From the NCBI GenBank assembly GCA_030390025.1, contig CM059431.1, positions 140,866,001-140,930,000 of the forward strand: 64,000 bases of DNA, given 5' to 3'. The DNA is from Squalus acanthias. Its lineage: Eukaryota. Position numbers and translations under genes: made by a program. Positions 4,329-64,000 of the stretch are shown in pieces. The first letter of the stretch is position 1; each line of letters begins with the position of its first letter. The notes beneath the pieces are model-generated. The model did no database searches, was not told the DNA's origin, and was given only the letters and a program-made list of their open reading frames with translations.

Positions 4329-4511
4329 TGTGGTAACACTTTTCAGCTTCCTGTATGACATCACTTCCTGTAATCAGTCCAGGATAAATACTGGACTGAT
4401 CAGTTAGCTCTGGAAGAGGCATAGGGTAAGACCTCTTTTGTATGCAGCACCGTTTTAAGTTGATTAAAGCTTACATTAAGTTTACCACGCGTAAGGCTCA
4501 TTCTTACGACA
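4329..4511 (+). repeat. 5' LTR (~183 bp) of Gypsy element A
   Basis: Starts TGT, ends TTACGACA; TATA-like GATAAATA 4383-4390, ATTAAA 4463-4468; 3' portion resembles the LTR at 62984-63198. The 5' boundary cannot be confirmed without a second LTR. Confidence 0.75.
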
Positions 4512-7500
4512 ATTTAATCAACTTTTGAAAAACTTCGCACTCAAACTTTTTGGACGAACTCGGAGCTAAGGATCCAGGGAATCACCCATCATGGAAAACA
4601 TCCTTAAACCATCGCGTCTTGACTTGGACCCAAACACCCCAGCAGCCGGTAAGGTGTGGAAACACTGGTATCGCACGTTTGAGAATTTTCTTGAGTATTG
4701 CAAAGCGGATGATAACTCAAAGTTGCGGATACTCATCAACTGTGTCACCCCGAATGTATTTCAGTATGTGGAAGACTGGGACAGTTATGAGGAGGCAATT
4801 CAGACGCTTAAGAGACTATATACTAAGACACCGAATGAGGTCTATGCTAGACATCTACTAGCTACAGCCCAACAAGGGCCGGAGGAATCCATTGATAAAT
4901 TCCTCCAAGAGCTTCGCAGACTTAGTATGGACTGTAACTTTCGGGCAGCCTCAGCTGAGCTATACCGCGAAGAAATGATCCGTGATGCGTTCATCTGCGG
5001 GCTTGCCTCCCCATTTATACGCCAGCGTCTACTGGAAAGTAAGACACTTGAGCTGCAGAGAGCTTATGACCTGGCTTGCTCTCTAGATCTAGCAAAACGA
5101 AATGCAGACCTTTTTACAGTGCCCAGACCTCGGTCTGCTGCCTTAACTACAGTCAGGCAATTTAAGAGGCCACAGGTGAACTCTATTAGGGAGGACTTTA
5201 TCCCTGACGATCGATCTGATGACTTCACCGATGAAGAGGATGATGACCCCACTGTGGCAGCCTCTTGGCAATCTAAGAAATGCTTTTTTTGTGGGGATGA
5301 GTTTCACCCTCGGAGATTCTGCCCTGCTCGCAATGCGTTTTGCAGTCATTGCAACAAAAAGGGTCATTTTGTAAAGGTTTGCCTATCAAGAGCCTCTACG
5401 AGGGCTTATCAAGCTAAGTCCTACCGAACTGCCCCAGTAAGGGCCTATCAGGATGTTCCAACTAAAAACTATCGTGCTTCCTCTCGGGTTTTTTCTCGAA
5501 GAAACACACCTAGAATTTCAGCCACTCTTTGTGCAACGACACCAATTACAGCTGCTTGTCCTCAGAATCTATTCCATGCAGCTACAAAAGCATCAATTAA
5601 GGGACATACTTTAGATGCCTTAATTGACTCAGGTAGCACTGATAGTTTCATTAGGGAACAGACTGTTGCACAGTTAAAGCTACATGTTTTTCCATCGGAC
5701 CAGGCAGTTGCGATGGCTCAGTCATCACTTAATACCAGAATTTCTGGCTTCTGTGTAGTTGAAATAATGCTTAAAGGTCACAGGTATCCCTCCACCCGGC
5801 TTTCGGTGCTCAAGGACTTATGTAGTGATCTTATCTTAGGGCTGGATTTTCAAAAGCAGCATAAGAAGCTTACCATTGAGTTCGGCGGATCCAAACCTGA
5901 ACTCACTATTTCTAATATACGACCTCGATTACCGTTCTGTGCCTTGTCAGCAGCTTCACTGGATGAACCCTCACTGTTTGCCAGTATCCCTCCTCGATGC
6001 AAACCGATTATAACAAAGTCACGCCGTTTCAGTCAGGAAGACCAGTCTTTTATTGCGGCTGAGATTTCTCGGCTTTTAGCAGAGGATATCATCGAGCCTT
6101 GTTCGTCGCCATGGCGCGCCCAGGTCGTTATTGTTAAGAACCCTCTACAACCTCACAAGAAACGGCTGTGCATTGACTATTCACAGACCATCAATCAGTA
6201 TACGGACTTGGACGCATACCCATTGCCGCGCATCGATGATATGGTTAATAAATTGGCTGAGTACACGGTGTTCTCGACTTATGATCTGAAAAGCGCCTAT
6301 CATCAGGTACCCTTGAAGGTCTCAGACAAGCAGTATACAGCCTTTGAAGCCAATGGGCGGCTGTATCAATTTCGTCGCCTCCCCTTTGGGGTCACTAATG
6401 GAGTGGCTGTCTTCCAGCGAGCAATGGATGACCTGGTCAAACAGGAAGACTTGAAGGATACGTTTCCTTATCTGGACAATATTACTGTCGCAGGTCGCAA
6501 TCAGCAGGAACATGACGCCAATCTCCAACGATTTTGGGATGCACTCCAGCACCGTAATTTGACATTGAATGCGGCTAAATCCATTGAGTCACAACCAACT
6601 ATCAACATCCTTGGCTATTGTGTGGGCAATGGCATCATTAAACCTGACCCTGAAAGGCTTCGCCCACTCCAAGAACTCCCGCCACCTAAGAATCCGGCCT
6701 CCTTGCGCCGGGCCCTCGGCCTGTTTGCATACTATGCGAAATGGATTCCTAACTTCTCGGACCGAATCCAACCTCTACTGAAGGCCAGCACATTCCCACT
6801 AGACACAACGGCTGTTGCAGCCTTTAACCTCCTGAAAAAGCAGTTGGAGAAAGCGGCTCTTCACTCCATCGATGAGAGTCTTCCTTTCGTGGTTGAGTGT
6901 GATGCCTCGGAGGTGGCAATCTCAGCCACTCTGAATCAGGAAGGTCGTCCGGTGGCATTTTTGTCCAGGACTTTTCAAGGGGCTGAGCTACATTATCCTC
7001 CAGTCGAGAAAGAAGCTACAGCCATCATAGAGGCAGTACGGAAGTGGAGTCATCTCCTGGCTCGCCAGCACTTTACCTTAATCACGGACCAGCGATCGGT
7101 CGCCTTCATGCTCGATAATCGAAAACGGACCAAAATTAAAAATAATAAAATCCAGCTTTGGCGGCTGGAATTGGCCTCTTTTGGTTACACCATCCACTAT
7201 CGACCTGGCAAGGAGAATGTGGCTCCGGATACCCTCACACGAGCATTCTGCTCCGCCATGGCACCCTCTACGCTCGTAGACATCCATGATGGGTTGTGTC
7301 ATCCAGGCGTTACTCGCATGCTGCACTTCGTGCGGTCCCGAAATCTCCCATTCTCTACCGGGGATGTAAAGAAGATGTGCTCGGACTGCAGAGTCTGTGC
7401 GGAATTGAAACCTCGGTTTTTCCGCCCCTCGGGTGGTATACTCATACATGCGACCCAGCCAATGCAAAGGCTTAGCATCGATTTTAAGGGGCCGTTGCCC

Positions 7501-8520
7501 TCTTCGACTCGCAACACTTATCTATTAACAATGGTTGATGAGTATTCTCGTTTTCCGTTTGCCTTTCCCTGCCCCAATATGCTGACAACCACGGTTATCA
7601 GCTGCCTTGAACAGGTATTTGCTTTCTGTGGCATGGCATCCTATGTTCATTCAGATCGGGGCCCTTCTTTTATGTCGGGAGAACTCAAGGCCTATCTCTC
7701 GGAACGGGGTATTGCTGCCAGCAAAACGACGCCTTATCATCCGGTTGGGAATGGGCAAGTCGAGCGTTTTAACGCTATCATCTGGAATGCGGTACGTCTG
7801 GCTTTGAGATCTCGGGGCCTACCCAACCAGCAATGGGAAGCAGTACTTCCAGACGCATTACACTCCACACGGTCCCTCCTTTCGACCGCCACAAATACGA
7901 CGCCTCATGAACGGTTCTTCCGATTTCAGCGTCGCTCATCCTATGGGACATCTCTCCCGTCGTGGCTGACTACACCGGGACCAGTGCTACTCCGAAGATA
8001 TGTCCGGGCGTCTAAGAATGACCCCCTGGTAGATGAGGTTGAGCTCACTGACGTCAACCCTACCTACGCCTATATTCGGTATCCTGACGGTCGGGAATCT
8101 ACCGTGTCATTGCGGGATCTGGCTCCCTGCCCGCCGAAACATAGAGGGACACCAGGGGATGATATTGTACCAGGCACATCTCTGGGCTTGCCAGGTGCCT
8201 CTCATCATGATCGGGATCTAACGCCGGCTGGTACCTCACTCCAGCGTGCCGACCTGGGGCAGACTGACTATGAGCCCGTCGGGGCTCGCACGCGCAGCCA
8301 CGATCAACCCTGTACCGTACGCTCAGAAACGGATCTGTCACAGCCCTGCCCGACACCCATTCGGGTACCAGTACATGGTCAGGATCGTTCTGACCCCTCA
8401 CAGAGCGGGCTGGAGCACTCGGACTCTGGTCCATGGCCCGCAGCGGGTAAACGGGCTAGGGGCCCTCTACCGCTACGAGAACCCAAACGGGTGCGGCTCT
8501 CCCTAGAGTCAGTGATCGCT
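4329..8520 (+). mobile_element. Gypsy (Ty3) LTR retrotransposon: 5' LTR plus internal region, 3' LTR absent
   Basis: TG...CA LTR followed by a single gag-PR-RT-RH-IN ORF; sequence switches to an antisense CR1 3' tail at ~8521. Confidence 0.95.
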
Positions 8521-8601
8521 ATCATAGAATCATCCAGCAGAGAAGGCGGCCATTCAGCCTATCGAGCCTGGACCCGCTCTTTGAAAGAGCAATCCAATTA
8601 G
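4591..8601 (+). CDS. Gypsy gag-pol polyprotein (1336 aa, uninterrupted)
   Basis: Two CCHC knuckles (CFFCGDEFHPRRFC, CSHCNKKGHFVKVC), protease LIDSGS, RT (DLKSAYHQ, LPFG, YLDN), RNase H (CDAS, EKEA, TDQ), integrase HHCC and D-D-E (SIDFKGP, SDRGPSF, VERFN). The last ~27 aa are read from the adjacent CR1 tail. Confidence 0.95.
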   Translation: MENILKPSRLDLDPNTPAAGKVWKHWYRTFENFLEYCKADDNSKLRILINCVTPNVFQYVEDWDSYEEAIQTLKRLYTKTPNEVYARHLLATAQQGPEESIDKFLQELRRLSMDCNFRAASAELYREEMIRDAFICGLASPFIRQRLLESKTLELQRAYDLACSLDLAKRNADLFTVPRPRSAALTTVRQFKRPQVNSIREDFIPDDRSDDFTDEEDDDPTVAASWQSKKCFFCGDEFHPRRFCPARNAFCSHCNKKGHFVKVCLSRASTRAYQAKSYRTAPVRAYQDVPTKNYRASSRVFSRRNTPRISATLCATTPITAACPQNLFHAATKASIKGHTLDALIDSGSTDSFIREQTVAQLKLHVFPSDQAVAMAQSSLNTRISGFCVVEIMLKGHRYPSTRLSVLKDLCSDLILGLDFQKQHKKLTIEFGGSKPELTISNIRPRLPFCALSAASLDEPSLFASIPPRCKPIITKSRRFSQEDQSFIAAEISRLLAEDIIEPCSSPWRAQVVIVKNPLQPHKKRLCIDYSQTINQYTDLDAYPLPRIDDMVNKLAEYTVFSTYDLKSAYHQVPLKVSDKQYTAFEANGRLYQFRRLPFGVTNGVAVFQRAMDDLVKQEDLKDTFPYLDNITVAGRNQQEHDANLQRFWDALQHRNLTLNAAKSIESQPTINILGYCVGNGIIKPDPERLRPLQELPPPKNPASLRRALGLFAYYAKWIPNFSDRIQPLLKASTFPLDTTAVAAFNLLKKQLEKAALHSIDESLPFVVECDASEVAISATLNQEGRPVAFLSRTFQGAELHYPPVEKEATAIIEAVRKWSHLLARQHFTLITDQRSVAFMLDNRKRTKIKNNKIQLWRLELASFGYTIHYRPGKENVAPDTLTRAFCSAMAPSTLVDIHDGLCHPGVTRMLHFVRSRNLPFSTGDVKKMCSDCRVCAELKPRFFRPSGGILIHATQPMQRLSIDFKGPLPSSTRNTYLLTMVDEYSRFPFAFPCPNMLTTTVISCLEQVFAFCGMASYVHSDRGPSFMSGELKAYLSERGIAASKTTPYHPVGNGQVERFNAIIWNAVRLALRSRGLPNQQWEAVLPDALHSTRSLLSTATNTTPHERFFRFQRRSSYGTSLPSWLTTPGPVLLRRYVRASKNDPLVDEVELTDVNPTYAYIRYPDGRESTVSLRDLAPCPPKHRGTPGDDIVPGTSLGLPGASHHDRDLTPAGTSLQRADLGQTDYEPVGARTRSHDQPCTVRSETDLSQPCPTPIRVPVHGQDRSDPSQSGLEHSDSGPWPAAGKRARGPLPLREPKRVRLSLESVIAIIESSSREGGHSAYRAWTRSLKEQSN

Positions 8602-44560: not shown

Positions 44561-47065
44561 GTTTTAAAGTGTTGCGTACGTTGGTATGATTTTCATTTTT
44601 TTGGGGGTTTCTAAGATACCCTCATCCCCTTTATGATTCTGTTAAACAAAACATTATAAATTAACCGGTAACAAGGAAGATCCCAAAGGTTCAATAGTCA
44701 CCCGTCCCTTACAGGTTCCCATTTGTCGATAACCTACTTTCATTTTGTAATGAGCTGTCTGTGCAGAGCCAGATCTCCCACCCATCCCATAATTCCTCAC
44801 CGTGTGTAGATGTGGAACCTTTTCCGCTGCTTCATTAAAATCCGACTGGGTCATTCCAACTGCATTTCCCCTGCCCTACAGGACAGTGATGTGTTTCAGA
44901 AACTCCAGCAGGTTAGTTAAAGATGACACATCGTCCCTTAAACAAATATAATTCCCTTTTACATTGCTCCTCTCCCAGGTGTTGACCCATTAGATCTCCT
45001 TGGCCGCACAATCCAATAAAAGAATGGAATCCCCATTCATACTTATGGGACTTCGAAACAACAGAATCCCCATAAGTATGAATGGCGATCACTTAATAAA
45101 TACATGAACACATGAAAAAAATGAAAATAAATTACATATTTAAAATTAATTAAAATACCATTTAATCAAATATATTAAAAAAAAAATAATTTTTTGAAAA
45201 ATATTAACGGGGCTAAAAATAATCTTCCCTTATCGGACAGGGTTTTTATTGCATAAATGAGTAAAAAAATATATTTTTCTATATTTTATAACTCTTATGC
45301 TGGTAACAAAATTATGGCAGATGCCTTCGAATTTACCTGGAGGTCCGGGAGGTACAGAAAGCATCATGCCTGCTTTTACAAGGCAAAAGAATTTCACTGG
45401 CATTCAGTGTGCGGACGATGGGCAAATGGTGCTACTCTCTGCCCGCGGAGGCCCTTTTCCCGGGGATGCAGAGGATCCGCAAAGAAAATTCTTCACAGAT
45501 CCCAGGTCTTTCATTTTCTGTGGGCAAGGGCCCGCCCGAAACCTCACATCCGGGACACTCCAGTCGTACCTTGATCTCTTTCTTGCTCAGTTTAGAAGAT
45601 TGTTCTTTAATTTTCTTTCGTATAATTTACAAGTTAAGAATTAGCAAAGTACATTTTAAATATGTTCACAAATTCCCCTTTTTATAAGGATCCAATCTCT
45701 TCCTTTAAAGATTTTATCGAATCGCTGTTAATATCATTTCACCGATCCGTATTTAAAAGCTGAAAACAAAATACAACTGATATTTTATAAATTCAAGTGG
45801 AGCCTTCTCCGTCTATTTTTTTCGACTCTTCCCGCTCTCTTTCTCATCATAGCCCCACTCTCCTGGTTCCATTTCTTTCTGTCAGATCCCGCACTCTGCC
45901 AGATCCCAGTCCCACAGTTTCCCGCACTCTGCCAGTTCCCGATGTTCCCTTTGTTCGAGAATGGCCCCTCGTTTATCAGAGGGATAAAATTCAAATGAAT
46001 CTCTTATTGTTCTCACAAGGATTGTTGGGCTTTCCTCATTTGGACTGTGTGGACAATTCTGGCAACCTAATCATAAAAATGATATTTCTGCACTTTATAG
46101 GTCACACAGCTCAGTTCCAGAGATTCCAGGGATTCACAATTCCAGTTAAGAAGAAATTATAGAAAATCCTGCTTTCTATCTTTAGAAAAGAAGAAACCTC
46201 CAGCTGATCTAATGTCAGTTTTAATGTTACAAGGAGAATGCACACATTTCTCAAATTCTTAACTGTATCAAGGAGTTCAATCATAAAGATCTAGAAGTTT
46301 AAAATGTGAAAATAAAAGTTAGACGGGAAGCCGGGCAGAACATTTCAGCTCACTGGGTAACTGTATTCTGGGTGTTATTTACTGAATTACCAGGAGGGTC
46401 ATTCGGCACAAACTTTTTTATCTGCTTCTGAAATTGACATCGATGTTATCGAAAGTTTATCACATGACAAACATAACCTTCTGTAAACAAACTGCAACAT
46501 CCATGTGCTGCGTAACACAGGCAAAGGTAAAATGATGAACTTCAATCTGAGGAGTTTAACAAACAAGATATACAATGAAAAAAGCAAGAAAATTATCTTG
46601 AAAGAAGGGAAGATTATCAAAAAGTATACCTTTAAGTGGAATACTCCTGCCACTACATTTGCTGCAGTTTATGAGGCAATAATAGGAACTCTATTATTTA
46701 ACGTTATTTTGTTAATTTGTCGATTTATCCTAATCATCCTCACAGTTGTTAATTGGATAGTCAGTAGTGCCTGTCCCGACCGTAACAAATCCAAAGCTGG
46801 CGACCCAGTTATATGCACTCTATTGAAGTACAAACAGAGGAATTCGGTTGTGTTGTGTTGAAGAGGCCCTACACAGCATCAAATACACGGAATCTCCTAT
46901 GTTGCGAATCCAAATATTTTCCCACGTCGTGGAGATCCCATTGTTGAAAAGCTGCATTTTATTATCCTGAAGCATAAATGCTGAGGAAGAAGATGAATCC
47001 TTCATTCACTCCTTTAGCTCCTCACGAAGGAATTGGACTAAAGAGAAGTAGGATCGGGGTTATGC

Positions 47066-49112: not shown

Positions 49113-52100
49113 TACAAGGCCTACAATTCAGAGCAGCTGAAGGCAGTTAATTAGGGAAACTAGATTCTTTGTTTCAGGGCCTATAAAAACAAGCTTTGCA
49201 GTGCGATATGCACTGAGTGCGGTTTGCACAGAGTGCTGGGAGTTGGGTGAGTCAGGGAGGAGGAGACAGAAGACAGAGCGACGAAGGACAGAGTGGAGAC
49301 CCTTTCCACCTCCACCACGCCTGCAGCTACAAGCTACAACTACAGCAACTTCTACTGCTGAGGTGCCAGAGGGGAGAGAGGAAAGGAGACCAATAACAAC
49401 AACAGAGGGAAGCCATTCCATTACTGCCTCCCCAACTGGTCTCCATTACGAGAGAGGGAGAGAGGAGAAACAAAACCAACACCTGCTTGGAAGGAGAATA
49501 ACATCTAGAGGTGGGTGTTAAAAAGGGCACTCTCCAAAAGACTTTGTATTTGAGGTGGGGGGAGCAAAGAAGAAGGAGAAGACCGGCACAGCAAGGGTTG
49601 TGTGTTGGTGCGTGTGGTTCTTGCTAATAAATAGGCCACACACACCATCAACAAGCACCCCTTGCCTATTGCTTCACCTGGGACAGCTGGAGCTGCCCAG
49701 GCAAAGTCATCAATCTATTTTCCCATCTACAACATCGTTAAGACCTGGTGGTGGACTGAGCCTGGTCATCTCCAGCTTTATTTTCCCAGGTGAAAACATC
49801 TTCTCCCCCCACCAGAAGAACATCAAAAAAGACTATAATTAACATCGGAAAGTGCCCCCCCCTGGAATCACTCACCCACCCACTATCCTGAGTGGCGAAC
49901 AGGCCCGTGCGGCCTTGCTCCTTCGTTCCCCCCCTCTCTCTCTCTCTCTCTTTCTCTCTCTGCCTCTCTCTCTATAACGAGGCACCTCTAATTTTATTAA
50001 TTACCAAATTGAGCAGAGGGGAGGAGGCACCTCTCCCAATTCCAATCATCAAAGGGAGAGGTGTGCCTTCATTTTTAAAACAACCTCCTCTGCTCGGGGA
50101 AAAGACAAAAAAAAACCAAGGCCATTTCAACCATCTCCCGGCCTGTGACTTAAGGTGAGTGTAGCCCTTTATAACTCCTCAGTATGGCGAGCACCTCTTC
50201 GCCGGCGACGGGGCCAGCAAGGTCGTACGCGGGTGTGGCAGCCACGGCCACAGCCAGTCCCGCTGCTTCTGCTGCCCCATCGCCTTTCAGGCTACTGACC
50301 AAAATACTGGGGGTGAAGAGCGACACTCACCCCAACATGACCATAGAGGCTTGCGTCAAAGCCATGGCTGGGGTAGTCGGCCCCTCAGCCATCGTAGCGG
50401 CCTCTAAAATGTACGGAAAGGCTGTGTTCTTCCTGAGGTCGGGGCGGGAGGTGTCCCTGGCCGTCACCAAGGGGCTCACCGTGGGCGGGACCTTCCTGCT
50501 GGTGGATCCGATCGATGAGTCTGTCCAGCCTGTGCCTCCCGGGGACGGGGAAGAGACCCTGCTCGTGGGGGGGGGGGGGGGCCGCAGAACTACCCGCGGA
50601 GGGAAATTATACTGAACAGTTGTTTCTCGCCAGGTCGGGCGTACTGGGGACCGGGGTGGGCGACGCCGATGAGGCTGAGCCCGCCGTATACGGTCAGGAC
50701 TACTCCCAGGTGCTGCTCGATCTGGTGGAGCAATTCAATCAAGGTCCCCGGTCCGCTGGGTCAGAGGATGGTGGCGGTGAAGGGGAAGGCCCCCTGACTC
50801 CGTCTCCGACGCTGGCGCCGGGGGTGTTGGGGGAACTGGCACTAATGTACTCCCCGGTTTTCCCGTGCAACCCGGTGCTGGGGGCGGAGGGGGGCCCTGA
50901 GCCACCGACGCTTCCTGACCCGGCGCCTCTGGAGGACCCCAGGGAGGACTCCTCTGTCGCCGATCCTGGGGGTGGGATCGGGGCAGAGGTAGGGCCAGCT
51001 GATGGCGACCCCCCAGAAGAGGACGGGGACCCGGCGGAGGACACTGAGGATGACATGGAATCCGTCGCCAGCGAGGCGGCGGATACCCTCCTGCCCCCCT
51101 CCGGGTCCCCCCTCATCCCCGTTGTGGAACTCCGGGACTTTGTGGCCATGGGCCAAGGTCGCCAGGATATAATCCGGCTGGCCATTGATAAATGGTCGGA
51201 TCTGGCGCTGCTCGTTTGCTCCGACCGCGCCGCAGTCAAAACCATGGGCGCGGACGAGGCCCTGGGCACGGCCGAGCGGCATCGGATCCGGAAGTTCCTC
51301 GCTGGGCTTAGAAGGGAGCGGCGGTCGACCACCGGCCGCGCTCCCTCCTCCCGTTAGAGTAAGGTAGAGGTTGCACTATGCTCTTGTCATGAAGTTAACC
51401 ATAGCCAGCCTGAACATCAACGGCAGCAGAGAGGTACGCCGTAGATTTAATAACTTTTCGGCCCATCGGGAAGGGAGGCATGCGGTGTGCTTCCTGCAGG
51501 AAACTCACACTGTTCCAGGAGACGAGGCCACGTTGCTCCTGGAGTGGCGAGGAGGGGTCAGCATGAGTCACCTCCCCAACATTTCCGGTGGGGTGGCTAT
51601 GTTGCTGGCCCCGCATTTTCAGCCGGAGATCTTGGGGGTCAAGGAGCATGTGCCGGGCCGCTTGCTCCAGGTCACTGTTCGCCGGGGGGGCGTGCCGTTC
51701 CTTTTAGTGAGCGTGTACGCCCACAAGGCCGGTGCACAGCAAATGCGCTTCTTCAAAGAAGTGTCCGCTCTTCTGGGCACCGTCGACGTCGGCGAGTGCG
51801 TCATCCTCGGGGGGGATTTTAATTGTACCCTTGAGGTGAGGTACCGTTCGGGACCTCTGCAAAGCCTGGCGGTGACGGTGAAGTTGAGGGACCTGGTCGG
51901 GTCCTTCGACTTGGTGGACGTCTGGCGAAATCTTCATCCCGACTCCAGCGCCTTCACTTGGGTGGGGTCTGGAGGAGGAAGGTCCAGAATCGACCGCCTT
52001 TATATTTCCCGGGCGTACGTCTCCTGCGTTCCGGCGGCTTCCATGCAGCCGGTGCCGTGCACGGACCACCACCTGGTGTGGGCGGAGCTCGCTCCTTTGC

Positions 52101-55100
52101 GGGAGCCGGGGGGGGGCCCGCGTACTGGCATTTTAACAACCTGCTGCTGGAGGACGTGCGGTTCCAGGATTCGTTTCGCCGGTTCTGGGCCGACTGGAGA
52201 AGGAAGCAGGGGGGCTTCACCTCCTTGAGGCTATGGTGGGAAGTGGGCAAGGCTCACGTCCGTCTCTTCTGTCAAGAGTACGCAAGGGGGTCGACCAAGA
52301 GGCGGGAGACCCGGGTCGTGCGGTTGGAGCGGGAGGTGCTCGACCTGGAGTCCCGTCTCGGTCAAGTCGTCGAAGACCCGGCCCTGCGGAAGGTGTACGA
52401 AGAGAAGAAGGGCGCGCTGAAGAACCTGCAGCTGGTTGGGTCCCGAGGCGCGTACGTGAGGTCGCGGATGCAGTTCCTTCGGGACCTGGACCGCGGCTCC
52501 CCCTTCTTCTACTCGCTGGAAAAAAGACGAGGGGTCCGTAAGCAGCTCTTGGGGCTGCTGGTCGACGACGGATCTCTGGTCTCGGATCCGGAGGGGATCA
52601 GCGCGGAGACCCGGGCCTATTACGGGGCTCTGTTCTCTCTGGATCCGTCCAGCGAGGATGCGTGCAAAGTTTTGTGGGAGGACCTGCCGAAGGTCGGACC
52701 GGAGGGCGCCGAAGAATTGGACACTCCGCTAAGCTTGGCTGAGCTGACCGGCGCCCTCGGCCAGCTCTCGAGGGGAAAGTCCCCGGGGCTTGACGGGCTG
52801 ACCGTGGAGTTCCACAGAACGTTCTGGGACTTCTTGGGGGGCGACTACGCGCGGGTCCTGGGGGAAAGTCTGGCGACCGGGGAGATGCCCCTCTCTTGGC
52901 GCAGGGCGGTCACTGGCGCCCGGTCTCCCTTCTCAGCATGGACTATTAAATTTTTGCCACAGCCATGTCTGCCCGCCTCGGCACCGTGCTGGCCTACATG
53001 ATCCACCCCGACCAGTCCTATATGGTCCCGGGCCGGACAATCCACGACAACATCCATCTGGTCCGGGACCTGGTCCACCTTTCCCATAGGGCTGGTCTGT
53101 CGGTCGCCTTCCTTTCCCTGGATCAGGAGAAGGCGTTCGACAGGGTGGATCACGAGTATCTTTTCGGGACTCTGTGCGCATTCGGGTTCGGGACGCATAT
53201 CGTCGCCCGGTTCCGACTTCTGCACGCCGCCGTGGAGTGTCTGATTAAAGTTAATGGGTCTTTGACGGCGCCCCTTCGCTTTGGGAGGGGGGTACGTCAG
53301 GGATGCCCCATGTCCGGTCAGTTATATGCCGTTTGCGTGGAGCCTTTCCTTCGCATCTTGCGGAAGAGGTTGACGGGACTGGCTCTGCAAGGGCCGGGCG
53401 TGGAAGTCGTACTCTCGGCTTACGCTGATGATGTGCTCCTCATGTTCACGGATCCCGTCGACTTGCGGAGGATGTGAGAATGCCAGCAGATTTACTCGGA
53501 CGCATCCTCCGCCAGGATCAACTGGGAGAAATGTTCTGGACTCCTGGTGGGCCAGTGGCGGGTGGACTCCCTGCCGGAGGAGTTCAGGCCCTTCGCCTGG
53601 AGCACAACGCACCTCCTCTACTTGGGAGTCTACCTCGGCACTGCCGAGGACACCTGGCCGGCGAACTGGCAAGAGCTGGAGGCCAAAGTCACCGCTCGCC
53701 TAGGACGCTGGACGGGGTTGCTCCGAGTGTTGTCCTACAGGGGTCGAGCGCTGGTTATAAACCAGCTGGTGGCCGCCATGTTGTGGCACCGGTTGGTCAC
53801 TTTGATCCCTCCCGCCTGTGTTTGTCGCCAAGGTATAGCAGATGCTCATCGACTTCTTCTGGGTCAAAAGGAAGCACTGGGTCTCTGCCACAGTTCTGTG
53901 TATCCCGCTTAGGGAGGGCGGTCAGGCGCTGGTGTGCCTTCGCAGCCAGGTGGCGACTTTCCATCTTCAGACGCTGCAGAGGTACCTTTACGTCGAGAAT
54001 CCTCCCAGATGGTGTGCGCTGGCGACGTGTTTCTTCCGTCAGATGCACGGCCTCAACTATGACACGCAGCTCCTGTTTGTGGAATTGGGCCGCACGCGAG
54101 CCTACCTGTGGGAGCTGCCTGTCTTCTACCAGGAACTGCTATTTTTCTGGATCCAGGTCGCCTCCAGGCGGAGTTCTCCCCCGTCAGGAGTGGCGGCTCT
54201 CCTTCGGGAACCGCTGCTCAGGAATCCGCACATCCACGTCCAATGGATCAGGTGGCTGGCGGAGGGCAGGGCTGTGCCTGGCAAGGTGACCAGAGTCGGG
54301 GACCTGCTCTATGGCGGAGGAGCGGGCTGGATGGTGCCGGAGGAGTTGGAGTGGCGCCTCTCCTGGGTCGACGTCTGCCGCGCGACCAAAGCCATCGAGT
54401 CGCTGAAAGTGGCACTGGGCCCGGACTCCACTAGGTGTATCGAGGAGGCTCAAGCACGTGCGGCGATCCCGTCCGAACTGACCTCCGTTCGGACGGAATT
54501 CCTCATCGGTGCGCGGCCCCAAAACCCCTCTCGGGAACCAGCGTCTCACAACTTGAGCCGCCTCGGGGAAATGCCCTCCGTGCCCTTCAGTTCTGCATGG
54601 AGGGGTTTCCTGTACGGGCTGCTCCTGCACACTTTCCACTTTGTCATCTTCGCCTGCCGTCCGGACACGCCTTGGCGTGCCATCTTGCCGTCCGGCGGAG
54701 GCGAAGGTCCCCAATGGAGGGCTCTCTACGCGGGAGTCCTCCCCTTTTCTATTGGGGACATGGCCTGGAGGGTGTTGCACGGAGCAGTCCCGTGCAATCA
54801 GTTTTTAATTAGGTTCACAGACTCCCAGGCTGCCTGTCTTTTTTGCGGCCTCGAGGAGTCCATGTTCTACGTGTACGTACAATGTGAGAGGTTGCAGCAC
54901 CTTTTTGAATATTTGAAGGGGCTGCTCCACGCTTTTTGGTTGCACTTCAGTCCCACGCTCCTGATCTATGGTCACCCGGTGCGGAGCGGAGAGGGCAGGT
55001 CGGAGGACCTCCTCGTAGGACTGCTCCTGGGCCTGGCCAAAGTTGCCATTAACAGGTCCAGGCAGCGGGCGGTCGAGGGGGTCGTTCGGCCCAATTGCCT

Positions 55101-55311
55101 GCCTCTCTTCCGTGGCTATGTTCGCGCCCGGGTGGCCCTGGAGATGGAGCATGCGGTGTCCGCCGGCATGCTTGCAGCCTTCCGAGACCGGTGGGCGCCG
55201 CAGGGACTGGAGTGCATCGTCTCCCCGGACTATGTCATTTTAGTTTAATGAGATAAGTTTCATTTGAAGTTTTGTTAATTTACAGTCGTTTTATGCTGAC
55301 TCAAAAAGAGT
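49113..55311 (+). mobile_element. Tx1-clade non-LTR retrotransposon, copy A (inactivated)
   Basis: ~1.07-kb leader; ORF1 50184-51357 with internal deletion near 50512; ORF2 from ATG 51389 to 55248 with APE (SLNING, LQETH, GGDFN, RIDR, TDH), RT (LDQEKAFD, RQGCP, YADD) and C-terminal CxxC..C; several frameshifts. Confidence 0.92.
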
Positions 55312-59191: not shown

Positions 59192-62100
59192 CTTCTCTCT
59201 AACGAGGCAGCTCTATTTTATTAATTACCCAATTGAGCAGAGGGGAGAAAGCCACTCTCCCAATACCAATCATCAAAGGGAGAGGTGTGCCTTCATTTTT
59301 AAAACAACCCCCTCTGCTCGGGGAAAAGACAAAAAAAAACAAGGCCATTTCAACCATCACCCGGCCTGTGACTTGGGGTGGGTGTCGCCCTCTATAACAC
59401 GTCATTATGGCGAGCAGATCTTCGCCGGCGACGGGGCCAGCAAGGTCGTACACGGGTGTGGCAGCCACGGCCACAGCTGGCCCCGCTGCTTCTGCTGCCC
59501 CGTCGTCTTTCAGGCTACTGACCAAAAAACTGGGGGTGAAGAGCGACACTCACCCCAACATGATCATAGAAGCTTGCGTCAAAGCCATGGGTGGGGTAGT
59601 CGGCCCCTCAGCCATCGTAGCGTCCTCTAAAATGTTCAGAAAGGCTGTGTTCTTCCTGGGGTCGGAGCGTGCGGTGGCCCTGGCCATCATCAACGGGGCT
59701 CACCGTGGGCGGGACCTACCTGCCGGTGGATCCGCTCGAGGCCACCGCGCAGTGAATCATACTATCAAACGTCCCGCACTTTGTTCCGGTTGAGCTCCTC
59801 CTCCCCCACCTACGTCAACTGGGGGAGGTGAGGTCGGGGATTAATCCGATCCCGCTCGGCTGCAGGGATGCCAGCCTTCGGCACGTCTTCTCCTTCCAGC
59901 GCCAGCTGTTTATCCAGCTGGTGCGGGAGGAGGACACGGAGGGTGCATTTAGCGTCCAACATGAGGGGACCGCCTACCGCGTCTTCTGGACGTCGGAAGG
60001 TGTGCGGTGCCACGCCTGTAAGGATGTGGGGCACATAAGAAAGAACTGCCCCGCCTCCAAGGCCGCCAAAACATCTGAGGCGGCCAAGGCTGGCGCCGCC
60101 GCCACTCCTCTCTCTGTTTCTGTCCACGCGTCCGCGACACCCGAGGCGTGGTCGACGCCAGAGGTCGACGCCGTCGTGGCCTCTGGCAGAGGGGAGGGGG
60201 AGCATCCGATCGGAAGGAAGGCGCGGAAGAAAAGTAAACACCTTCAGGCGGTCCCCCTTGACGTACACGATGATTTACCCGAGCTTACGCACCCATACCT
60301 TGCGCAGGAAGCGGCGGTGCTCGAGAATGCGAGGGGCCTCGTGCCCGTGCCTGCGGCCGCAAACGCCAAGGCGGCAAGATCGAGACCTGCGGCCGTGACC
60401 GGGCCCGGGACCCCCGAGCAAACCGATCGACATGGGGGAGCGGAGGTGGAGGCCTCGGTACGCATGGAGGTCTCCCAACCTCCGTGTCCCTCCACACTGA
60501 AAAGGAGGCGCGACGCCCTGGAGGAGGAGGAGGAGGACCGCGAGGAACAGGGTCCCCCCTTGCAAGGGGAGTCGTCGCCCGCCGCGGGGGCTGCGCCCCC
60601 CCCCCCTACCGTCACCATCACCGACATCCGGCAGGGGTCGCCTGTCCCCCGGGAGGGCATGACAGAAGAGTCTGTCCAGCCTGTGCCTCCCGGGGATGGG
60701 GAAGAGACCCTGCTCATGGTGGGGGGGCCGCGTAACTACCCGCGGAGGGAGATTATACCGAACCGTTGTTTCTCGCCAGGTCGGGCGTCCTGGGGACCGA
60801 GGCGGGCGAGGACGATGAGGCTGAGCCGGGGTGGCTATCTTGCTGGACCTGCATTTTCAGCCGGAGATCTTGGGGGTCAAGGAGCATATGCCGAGCCGCT
60901 TGCTCCAGGTCACTGTTCACCTGGGGGGCGTGCCGCTCCATTTAGTGAGCATGTACGCCCCCCAGGCTGCTGCGCAGCAAGAGCGCTTCTTCGAAGAAGT
61001 GTCCGCTCTTGTGAGCGACGTCGGCGAGTGCGTCATCCTCGGGGGGGATTTTAATTGTGCCCTCGAGGCGAGAGAGCTTTTGGGTCCACTACGAAGCCTG
61101 GCGGCGATGGTGAAGTTGAAGGACCTGGTCGGGTCCTTCGACCTGGTGGACGTCTGGCGAAATCTCCATCCTGACTCCAGCGCCTTCACTTAGGTGGGGT
61201 CTGGAGGAGGAAGGTCCAGAATCGACCGCCTTTATAAATCTCGGGCGTACGTCTCCTGCATTCCGGCGGCTTCCATGCGGCCGGTGCCATGCATGGACCA
61301 CCACCTGGTGTGGGCGGAGCTCGCTCCGTTGCGGGCGCCGGGGAGGGTCCGCATACTGGCATTTTAACAAACTGCTGCTGGAGGACGCGCGGTTCCGGGA
61401 TTCGTTACGCTGGTTCTGGGCCAACTGGAGAAGGAAGCAGGGGGGCTTCCCCTCCTTGAGGCTATGGTGGGACGTGGGCAAGGCTCACTTCCGTCTCTTC
61501 TGTCAAGAGTATGCGAGGGGGTCGAACAAAAGGCAGGAGGCCCGGGTCGGGTTCTTGGAGAGGGAGGTGCTCGACCTGGAGTCCCGTCTCGGTCAAGTCG
61601 TCGAAGACCCGGCCCTGCGGAAGGAGTACGAAGAGAAGAAGGGCGCGCTGAAGGACCTGCACCTTGTCGGGTCCCGAGGCGCGTACGTGAGGTCGTGGAT
61701 CCAGTTCCTCCAGGAACTGGACCGCGGCTCCCCCTTCTTCTACTCGCTGGAAAAAAGACGAGGGTACCTATTACGGGGCTCTGTTCTCTCCGGATCCGTC
61801 CAGCGAGGATGCGCACAGAGTTTTGTGGGAGGTCCTGCCGAAGGTCGGCCCGGAGGGCGCCGAAGAATTGGACGCTCCGCTAAGCTTGGCGGAGCTGACC
61901 GGCGCCCTCGGCCAGCTCTCGAGAGGAAAGTCCCCGGGGCTGGACGGGCTGACCGTGGAGTTCCACAGGGCGTTCTGGGACGTCTTGGGGGCGACTACAC
62001 GCGGTTCCTGGGGGACAGTCTTGCGACCGGGGAGATGCCCCTCTCTTGGCGAAGGGTAGTTATCGTCCTGCTGCCCAAGAGGGGTGATCTCCGCCTTTTA

Positions 62101-62983
62101 AAAAACTGGCGCCCGGTCTCCCTCCTCAGCACGGACTATAAAATTTTTGCCAGGGCCATGTCTGCCCGCCTCGGCACCGTGCTGGCCCACATGATCCACC
62201 CCAACCAGTCCTACACGGTCCCGGGCCGGACAATCCACGACCACATCCATCTGGTCTGGGACCTGTTCCACCTTTCCCAGAGGGCTGGTCTGTCGGTCGC
62301 CTTCCTTTCCCTGGATCAGGAGAAGGCGTTTGACAGGTTGTATCACGAGTATCTTTTCGGAACTCTGCGCGCATTCGGGTTTGGGACACATTTTGTCGCC
62401 CGGATCCGACTTCTGTACGCAGCCGCAGAGTGTCTGATTAAAGTTAACGGGTCTTTGACGGCGTCCCATCGCTTTGGGAGGGGGGTTCGTCAGGGATGCC
62501 CCATGTCCGGTCAGTTATACGCCGTTTGCGTGGAGCCTTTCCTGCGCTTCTTGCGGAAGAGGTTGTCGGGACTGGCTCTGCAAGGGCTGGCCATGGAGGC
62601 CGTCCTCTCGGCTTACGCTGATGATGTGCTCCTCATGGTCACGGATCCCGTCGACTTGTGGAAGATGCAAGAATGCCAGCAGGTTTACTCGGACGCATCC
62701 TCCGCCAGGATCAACAGGGAGAAATGTTCTGGACTCCTGGTGGGCCAGTGGCGGGTGGACTCCCTGCCGGAGGAGTTCAGGCCCTTCGCCTGGAGCACAA
62801 CGCACCTCCTCTACTTGGGAGTCTACCTCGGCCCTGCCGAGGATACCTGGCCGGTGAACTGGCAAGAGCTGGAGGCCAAAGTCACCGCTCACCTAGGACG
62901 CTGGACGGGCTTGCTCCGAGTGTTGTCCTACAGGGGTCGAGCGCTGGTCATAAACCAGCTGATGGCCGCCATGTTGTGGTACC

Positions 62984-63198
62984 TGTCATAAATCGCAAGT
63001 AACAACTCAGGAAGTACTTCTGGGCGGCCAGCTGGGGCGCCGTCCAGGGAGTATAAATACTCAGGCATGGGCCCACCTTGGGCAGAGACAATCTGGAAAC
63101 AGGAAGCTAGTGACTGCTAACTGGACCTCCATGTTTTGTTACAAGTTGATTAAAGCCTTGCTTTATGTTCAAGTGCGTAGTGAGTCTTTATTACGTCA
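62984..63198 (+). repeat. 5' LTR (215 bp) of Gypsy element B
   Basis: TGT start fixed by the Tx1 breakpoint; TATAAATA 63052-63059; ATTAAA 63149-63154; ends TTACGTCA. Confidence 0.85.
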
Positions 63199-63298
63199 AT
63201 TTAATCAACTTGATATCGTCTCCACGCTTTGGGTGATTCGGAACAACCAGCTGCAACTCGAACCACAGAAGGGAACTAGGGCAAGAAACTGATCCATC

Positions 63299-64000
63299 AT
63301 GGAAAAACTCCTTAGACCCGCTCGTCTCGACCTGGACCCGAATGCACCTGCGGCAGCAAAGGTATGGAAGCATTGGTTTCGTACCTTTAGCAACTTTCTT
63401 GAAGAATGTGGGGCGGATGTCCCTAATAAGTTACGAATGCTTATCAACTACGTGTCTCCTCATGTGTATGATTATATTGAGGACTGTATAGTCTATGACA
63501 CTGCTATCGAAATCTTACAGCAGCTATATGTCAAGTCCCCAAATGAAATATTTGCTCGACACCTACTGGCCACAACTCGGCAGCAGCCTGGGGAATCACT
63601 CGATGAATTTCTCCAGAAACATCGCAGGCTCAGCAAGGATTGTAACCTTAAAGCAGTTACAGCTGAACAGTATCAAGAGGAACTAATCCGCGATTCCTTT
63701 ATCAATGGGATCGCGTCCCCTTTTATACGTCAGCGCCTGCTGGAAAATAAAACCCTCAATTTACGGGCTGCTTATGACCAGGCGTGTTCCTTGGACTTGG
63801 CCAAGAAAAATGCAGACACTTATCTCCCACCACGTGCACGGGCGGCGGCTATCTCCTTTAATGAGTCTTTCGGTAGGTCTCGGGCGGATGCCCCCACTGA
63901 TGTTGACTCTACTCTAACGGACGACGACCCTACCCTAGAGGCCTTCGCTGATGACGACCCCGCCCTAGCAGCATCCTGGCAATCAGGAAGAAAGTGTTTC
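63299..64000 (+). CDS. Gypsy gag N-terminus, open to window end (absent from the ORF track)
   Basis: MEKLLRPARLDLDPNAPAAAKVWKHWFRTF...SPFIRQRLLE...AASWQSGRKCF, collinear with the 4591 ORF; no stop in 234 codons. Confidence 0.92.
   Translation, partial: MEKLLRPARLDLDPNAPAAAKVWKHWFRTFSNFLEECGADVPNKLRMLINYVSPHVYDYIEDCIVYDTAIEILQQLYVKSPNEIFARHLLATTRQQPGESLDEFLQKHRRLSKDCNLKAVTAEQYQEELIRDSFINGIASPFIRQRLLENKTLNLRAAYDQACSLDLAKKNADTYLPPRARAAAISFNESFGRSRADAPTDVDSTLTDDDPTLEAFADDDPALAASWQSGRKCF

Follow-up and report, generated by a model that had tools for sequence, protein, structure and literature searches.

The window, as we call the complete 64-kb stretch of DNA analysed here, spans G000:C7:140866001-140930000 in a genome of 3.7 Gb and contains two related Ty3/Gypsy elements, A and B, both on the plus strand. 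Element B is inserted in the ORF2 of a LINE and is preceded by a 5-bp target site duplication (TSD, 62979-62983), which is identical to the five bases that follow its 3' LTR in L031, the slice that covers B beyond the window. The 5' LTR of B is 215 bp long (62984-63198, TG...CA) and its U3 region carries a TATA-like word with a putative role (63052-63059), which is also present in A and in a third family of the same genome, C. This LTR contains the 5' arm of a stem termed P1 (63142-63154, with an 11-nt core at 63144-63154), a candidate self-primer whose last six bases are ATTAAA, a variant of the poly(A) signal. A second helix, P2 (63155-63176), begins at the base after the arm, and a U5 hairpin is located at 63175-63196. 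The primer-binding site, which lacks a TGG and is complementary to the 5' arm, occupies 63200-63212, one base past the end of the LTR. The gag-pol ORF starts at 63299 and continues to the end of the window and beyond (63299-64000). The sequence-only reading had left it to the DNA beyond the window whether B also possesses a YLDN motif, a purine tract (PPT) and a 3' LTR, and all three are found in L031, with the 3' LTR 4296 bp downstream of the 5' LTR and 97.7% identical to it. B is therefore a complete element of 4,511 bp. The LTR ends and the TSD agree in six out of six copies (L031 and five further ones), all of which have the purine tract, the 215-bp LTRs and a 5-bp TSD. The interrupted LINE, which presumably is of the L1/Tx1 type, aligns to 53707-53793; B lies within the RT region of its GC-rich ORF2 (61120-62983 in the window and after position 4995 in L031), and a further copy of this LINE is present at around 50,400-55,200.

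Element A has a 5' LTR of 183 bp (4329-4511), the end of which is seen in the 3' and solo LTRs of the family; no other LTR copy of A is present within the 64-kb window. Its features are the 5' arm of P1 (4457-4468), a 5-bp P2 hairpin that begins at the base after the arm (4469-4481), the U5 hairpin (4490-4508), the primer-binding site (4513-4524) and a single gag-PR-RT-RH-IN ORF (4591-8601) with twin CCHC knuckles and a YLDN motif at about 6469-6480. This copy (4329-8601) has no 3' LTR in the window, and its ORF continues into unrelated sequence after about 8,500. In a protein domain scan, the order PR-RT-RH-IN was found, which is the Ty3/Gypsy architecture; the best PDB match is the Ty3 RT, and the catalytic residues of RNase H are present. 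The RT motif is YxDN, with Asn replacing the second Asp, in most members (19 of 22 motif matches in loci and 33 of 46 proteins); the families are nonetheless young and abundant (6469-6480; L076-L145; P0003-P0048). An inverted repeat surrounds the TATA-like word and forms a perfect 10-bp stem in A (4373-4400) and one of 6 bp in B (63049-63062). Elsewhere in the window, a long array of a 33-bp tandem repeat extends from 21162 to about 26000, with at least 74 overlapping family members listed.

Most of what the sequence-only reading had noted on the pairing in A and B was borne out. The two arms of B, said to pair perfectly, are exact reverse complements, and the 3' arm does start one nucleotide after the terminal CA, as the LTR end is set by the 3' LTR and the TSD. 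The arms are 45 nt apart in B and 44 nt apart in A, as had been stated, with 12 bp formed in A. The U3 regions, described as non-aligning, have only a 12-nt TATA-like word in common (E 0.09), and the inner hairpins of both elements are present and fold. Fold z-scores are -4.35 for B and -4.39 for A, and none of 200 shuffles was as stable. Perfect inverted repeats of at least 12 bp with loops of 20-120 nt occur at just four places in the 64 kb, two of which are the stems of A and B; the remaining two are at 45033-45049 and 60920. The two elements had also been regarded as replicates, and here the reading did not hold: A and B are sister families in the Gag tree, their polyproteins share 69% identity over 1240 aa, and their stem regions 77%. 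As the 12-nt arms are equal letter for letter, there is no covariation between A and B.

The P1 stem and the P2 helix in distant relatives

Gag homologues are present in cnidarians, crustaceans, molluscs, a tunicate and hagfish, and distant relatives of A and B, two dozen of them with the stem, were recovered from environmental DNA. Two Gag relatives (P0080 and P0123) are annotated in shrimp majanivirus records, suggesting that the clade has inserted into large DNA viruses; a search of viral contigs returned no relatives. Loci were searched with an alignment of P0002 and 65 of the 120 listed Gag fragments, and 80 loci, the best of 243 confirmed ones, were examined, which together with A, B and C fall into 32 clusters at 75% Gag identity. 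We searched for a stem between a site 8-110 nt before gag and a segment 20-120 nt upstream. A perfect P1 stem of at least 12 bp (12-17 bp) is found in 24 of the 31 families with enough upstream DNA and at 56 of 77 loci, whereas the same search reached 12 bp at none of 168 control positions. Of the seven families in which no 12-bp stem was found, two still form 9 bp, and the other five seem decayed or are missing an LTR. When all loci were rescored with G-U counted as Watson-Crick, 24 families reached 12 out of 12, and each of these has a copy free of G-U. Wherever both LTRs are present and the end is intact, the LTR ends in CA one base before the site. The stem also occurs in three of three members with a YxDD motif (L095, L116 and L138), and a tie between YxDN and self-priming was rejected.

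For a closer description we used 34 leaders with a stem of at least 12 bp preceded by CAA, which were de-duplicated and to which L114, L130 and L132 were added by hand; as this set is selected for the stem, its figures describe the stem and are no test of it. Among these stem-selected leaders, at least 62 compensated substitutions map to P1 positions 1-11 on the Gag tree, and only two of the 374 cells at these positions are not Watson-Crick pairs. The 5' arm lies 24-72 nt from the primer-binding site, which is also the predicted length of the minus strong-stop DNA. Judged by its sequence, P1 is a real, conserved and covarying structure. A TGG of the tRNA type is found at the primer-binding site in none of the 34 leaders; instead, there are 29 distinct 11-mers, each of which matches its own LTR, and a single host RNA as primer is therefore ruled out. 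One could still imagine that fragments of host RNAs, such as a half-tRNA or an snRNA, act as primers and that the arm in the LTR is a relic copied from them. Some copia lineages are primed by half-tRNAs (PMC6317226), and one primer-site 12-mer is common to A, B and the sister subfamily A' described below, with 11 of its bases also found in C. However, this does not account for the many different 11-mers that are each tracked by their own arm, and Rfam gave no match at E<=5 in 62900-63400. Given the covariation, we regard priming by a host RNA as extremely unlikely and close to refuted. Self-priming is the more economical reading because the site changes with the LTR of the same element and not with a fixed host RNA, and it is further supported by the register and direction of the pairing, which place the 3' end of the arm facing U5.

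The loops of the 34 leaders were folded on their own, and the outcome differs for the two inner helices. The sequence-only reading had emphasized the U5 hairpin as part of a conserved architecture. This part is not supported across the clade: just 6 of the 34 loops show pairing of the U5-end region at P>0.5, with a mean of 0.23 as compared to 0.40 in shuffles, and the hairpin shrinks to 3-4 bp in the sister family C of the same genome. It is thus a feature of A, A' and B, and was rejected as one of the clade. In contrast, the first three bases 3' of the 5' arm, with which P2 begins, are paired in 27 of the 34 leaders, with a mean of 0.75 versus 0.32 in shuffles (Wilcoxon p 3.6e-8, for leaders that are not independent). 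P2 begins with R-C-Y, and among 30 leaders, after four near-duplicates had been dropped, its first pair is G-C in 7, G-U in 14 and A-U in 7 of 28 cases. The helix is clear in A and strong in most relatives, but in B it is weak and contains a bulge (P 0.44). The conservation of P2 with G-U pairs points to a structure at the RNA level. What remains of the claim of a structured priming element under selection is, hence, the part supported by the distant relatives, through the stem in 24 families and its compensated changes, and not the parts that drew on the A/B pair or on the U5 hairpin.

Arm mutants among young copies

The A and B families are young, and 1,044 leaders in the genome have perfect arms at the spacing of A or B. 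A sister subfamily, A' (L172, G000:C1:10645300-10645800), makes up 98 of the 100 listed out of 1,880 leader matches. At arm position 12, A' has a U-U mismatch, and 11 bp are therefore enough for an element to spread. Some A' copies are arranged in tandem with a spacing of 4,247 bp (C1:566511, 570758 and 575005), and in one B copy, L025, the PPT lies directly before the 5' LTR, as in elements that share an LTR.

In these young families, single changes occur at rates near 0.001-0.002 per site, so that even one compensated copy is unlikely to arise by chance, although the numbers are small. At arm positions 5-8, two of 21 mutants are compensated (7 B-type and 14 A' mutants; one unrelated match was dropped), and at positions 1-4 none of nine (two unrelated matches were dropped); primer-site single mutants at positions 1-4 all have unchanged arms. 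The 3' LTR is visible in 15 of 19 slices, and in nine of nine uncompensated arm mutants the 3' arm is unchanged, suggesting that these mutations probably arose after insertion. In L167 and in the metagenomic L092, the arm change is present in both LTRs and is compensated in the primer site. L153, one of the two compensated mutants at positions 5-8, is a double mutant in which the changes are confined to the 5' LTR and the primer site, and this is not simply explained by the priming model. Such a compensated double change in the 5' arm and primer site, with an unchanged 3' LTR arm in the slice, is seen in the B copy at G000:C3218:47614-47682. In seven B copies, one and the same A>G substitution occurs at position 3 of the 5' LTR arm, with an unchanged primer site (G000:C5:54231405, C8:33005638, C19:915434, C19:32270132, C1450:630991, C2944:343315 and C3850:480443); the 3' LTR is unchanged in all four cases in which it is visible, and the flanks differ. 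This recurrent change of the 5' LTR may reflect a hot spot of RT errors, a mutation linked to the hairpin or assembly polishing. For a primer-templated correction of the primer site, the observations are suggestive only.

These copies also bear on the idea that the perfect match of the inverted repeat is maintained in the DNA, through template switching or the correction of hairpins in the course of reverse transcription or repair, or that the repeat serves the end-processing by integrase, and that it has no role as primer. L153, with its changes confined to the 5' LTR and the primer site, and the seven B copies with an arm change absent from the visible 3' LTRs would fit such an upkeep. On the other hand, 19 of the 21 arm mutants have not been corrected, the conserved P2 helix with its G-U pairs would be unexplained and points to RNA, and the element would be left without a primer. 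We therefore consider it very unlikely that DNA-level upkeep or integrase processing explains P1, and continue with self-priming as the preferred reading.

A self-priming model and its relation to known systems

If the arm acts as a primer, its length and position in the transcript are of interest. In 16 of 30 leaders, the motif A-[G/T]-T has its first base at arm position 11, as compared to 0-1 of 30 at each of positions 9, 10, 12, 13 and 14. We take this to be a loose and weak resemblance to an initiator; a pyrimidine precedes the putative +1 A in just 6 of 30 leaders. A TATA-like word lies upstream of arm position 11 by 75 nt in A and by 92 nt in B and is also present in C, which argues against a primer at the very 5' end and for a transcript start well upstream; in the 34 leaders, only seven such matches were found, at 75-143 nt. 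A TATA box at a constant position 30 nt upstream of the arm was considered and rejected, with none near -30 in the 34 leaders. When the RNA is assumed to start at arm position 11, P1 forms in the folds of A, A' and C, whereas the B RNA from 63144 (117 nt) has no P1 in its minimum-energy fold (z -0.05); in B, P1 forms in other folded segments, including one with a longer 5' start.

The arm ends in AATAAA or ATTAAA in 23 of the 34 leaders, with the hexamer as its last six bases, and positions 1-4 are the most conserved of the arm. This suggests that the end of the arm has an additional role in the 3' LTR, as a poly(A) signal that would be hidden in the 5' LTR. Occlusion of the poly(A) signal in a retroviral 5' LTR is known from the polyA hairpin of HIV-1. 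As in HIV-1, the hexamer is enclosed in a stem whose formation is restricted to the 5' end; here, however, the arm pairs with the primer-binding site, which lies outside the LTR, and hence no such stem is possible at the 3' end. One might argue that hiding the signal is all that the stem does and that something else is the primer, and the position of the hexamer and the conservation of positions 1-4 are in line with this. Yet the 11 arms without the hexamer pair perfectly, two of them with a compensated change inside it, and occlusion requires neither a fixed register to the LTR end nor the exclusion of G-U pairs; moreover, with no TGG in any leader, no other primer site is present. Occlusion as the sole function thus seems unlikely to us, and we regard it as a likely second job of the stem.

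A further possibility is that a cut at the arm/P2 junction of the 3' LTR turns the copy of the arm found there into the 3' end of the RNA, which then folds back onto the primer site or pairs with the primer site on a second packaged RNA. The arm is present in both LTRs, sequence cannot tell which copy primes, and with the far-upstream TATA-like word of A, B and C the 5' arm would come to lie within the transcript, all of which would be compatible with this. However, the 5' arm is only 24-72 nt away from the site and should pair first, and strand transfer would need to invade the primer itself. In addition, the arm ends in the poly(A) hexamer in most leaders, and cleavage normally takes place 10-30 nt after the signal and not at the signal. 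Priming from the 3' end, in both its forms taken together, is in our view decidedly unlikely.

We propose instead, and consider this likely, that P1 is the primer/primer-binding-site duplex of a Ty3/Gypsy clade that primes itself independently of tRNA with a 5'-derived primer of ~11 nt. In a first step, the RNA would fold and the ~11-nt LTR segment formed by the 5' arm would pair one base past the LTR end; the geometry and covariation of this pairing are observed, and its folding is predicted. P2, which starts at the next base and is conserved, might mark the junction. Cleavage of the RNA would then separate the arm from P2, at 63154/63155 in B; in analogy to Tf1, the RNase H of the RT encoded by the element would probably make this cut, and the freed 3'-OH would prime a minus strong-stop DNA of 24-72 nt. 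In the 3' LTR, the arm would be unpaired and its AAUAAA or AUUAAA end would act as poly(A) signal. The RNA would thus end within the loop, and the P2 region would provide the overlap for the first strand transfer, while the pairing in the 5' LTR would conceal the signal.

The model resembles what is described for Tf1 (PMC7175516): the first 11 bases of Tf1 pair with the primer site, and the RNA is cut between bases 11 and 12. Like Tf1 and Tf2 of Schizosaccharomyces pombe, Tj1 and the Tf1/sushi chromoviruses (PMC7175516, PMC10085805, PMC4600332, PMC5341516), the elements studied here are of the Ty3/Gypsy type and lack a tRNA site, have an LTR segment of ~11 nt complementary to a site just after the LTR-terminal CA, and their RT keeps the catalytic residues of RNase H. 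In contrast to the Tf1/sushi chromoviruses, no chromodomain was matched in any of 11 full-length proteins scanned (A, one B copy and nine relatives), and loss of the domain may explain its absence. In Tf1, both neighbours of the primer site are paired to the LTR, which yields a 'pretzel' of three duplexes (PMC10085805). No such 'pretzel' is seen here, as a leader-to-LTR duplex was found in none of 30 leaders and the U5-end hairpin is rare; the U5 hairpin of A, A' and B could act like the U5 stem of Tf1, in this lineage only. The clade instead has a local helix right after the primer, a short strong-stop DNA and mostly a YxDN RT. Furthermore, the primer is 5'-terminal in the transcript of Tf1, and only putatively so in this clade. 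Self-priming has also been predicted for the plant lineages Tcn1 (gypsy) and TAR/Houba/Osr-1 (copia), by a rule that requires at least 10 nt, 0-5 nt after the 5' LTR, to be complementary to the LTR (PMC6317226). The present clade conforms to this rule, but differs from these lineages in its animal hosts, in belonging to another lineage, in the covariation across families and in the second conserved helix.

With regard to the identity of the clade, the ESM Atlas returned only generic RT/RNase H clusters without a clade name. A Repbase-type label, 'Selfy', is reportedly in use for a self-priming Gypsy group, which may or may not include this clade; the label gave no match in the literature searched, nor did YLDN together with retrotransposon. 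As a lead, the clade might correspond to Cigr-1. The Cigr-1 clade is reported from tunicates, molluscs and annelids, which overlaps with the host range found here, and the searched text of the two papers contains neither the term PBS nor a statement on priming (PMC6238403, PMC8556966). Priming in this clade is likewise undescribed in the searched passages of PMC3601003, PMC4600332, PMC5341516, PMC5006619, PMC6934838, PMC12440569, PMC2774666 and PMC2836005. Nothing on self-priming in the clade was found in a search that covered neither Repbase, GyDB nor most subscription journals, and an earlier description is quite possible.

Taken together, Tf1-type chromoviruses are the only elements in which self-priming is proven, and predictions elsewhere mostly draw on one complementary stretch. 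For the present clade, it is supported by covariation across two dozen families, in what appears to be a non-chromoviral group of animal elements that accounts for about 2,900 young leader copies (1,044 and about 1,880 matches) in a single vertebrate genome. This bears on how often tRNA priming has been lost and on what an RT recognizes when it cuts an RNA:RNA duplex. The conserved part, consisting of the arm, the junction, the 4-5 bp helix and the CAA, fits into an RNA of 50-70 nt, and it provides an annotation rule for a group whose primer site would otherwise be scored as missing. More tentatively, we speculate that an animal Gypsy clade outside the chromoviruses might have evolved self-priming independently, on a minimal two-helix junction, and that the same 11-nt word might serve as primer at the 5' end and as poly(A) signal at the 3' end; we see this as possible rather than probable. 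If true, the pairing of P1 would expose the cut site and at the same time keep the RNA from being polyadenylated too early, and strand transfer would rely for its overlap entirely on the helix that follows the cut, with a strong-stop DNA as short as 24 nt.
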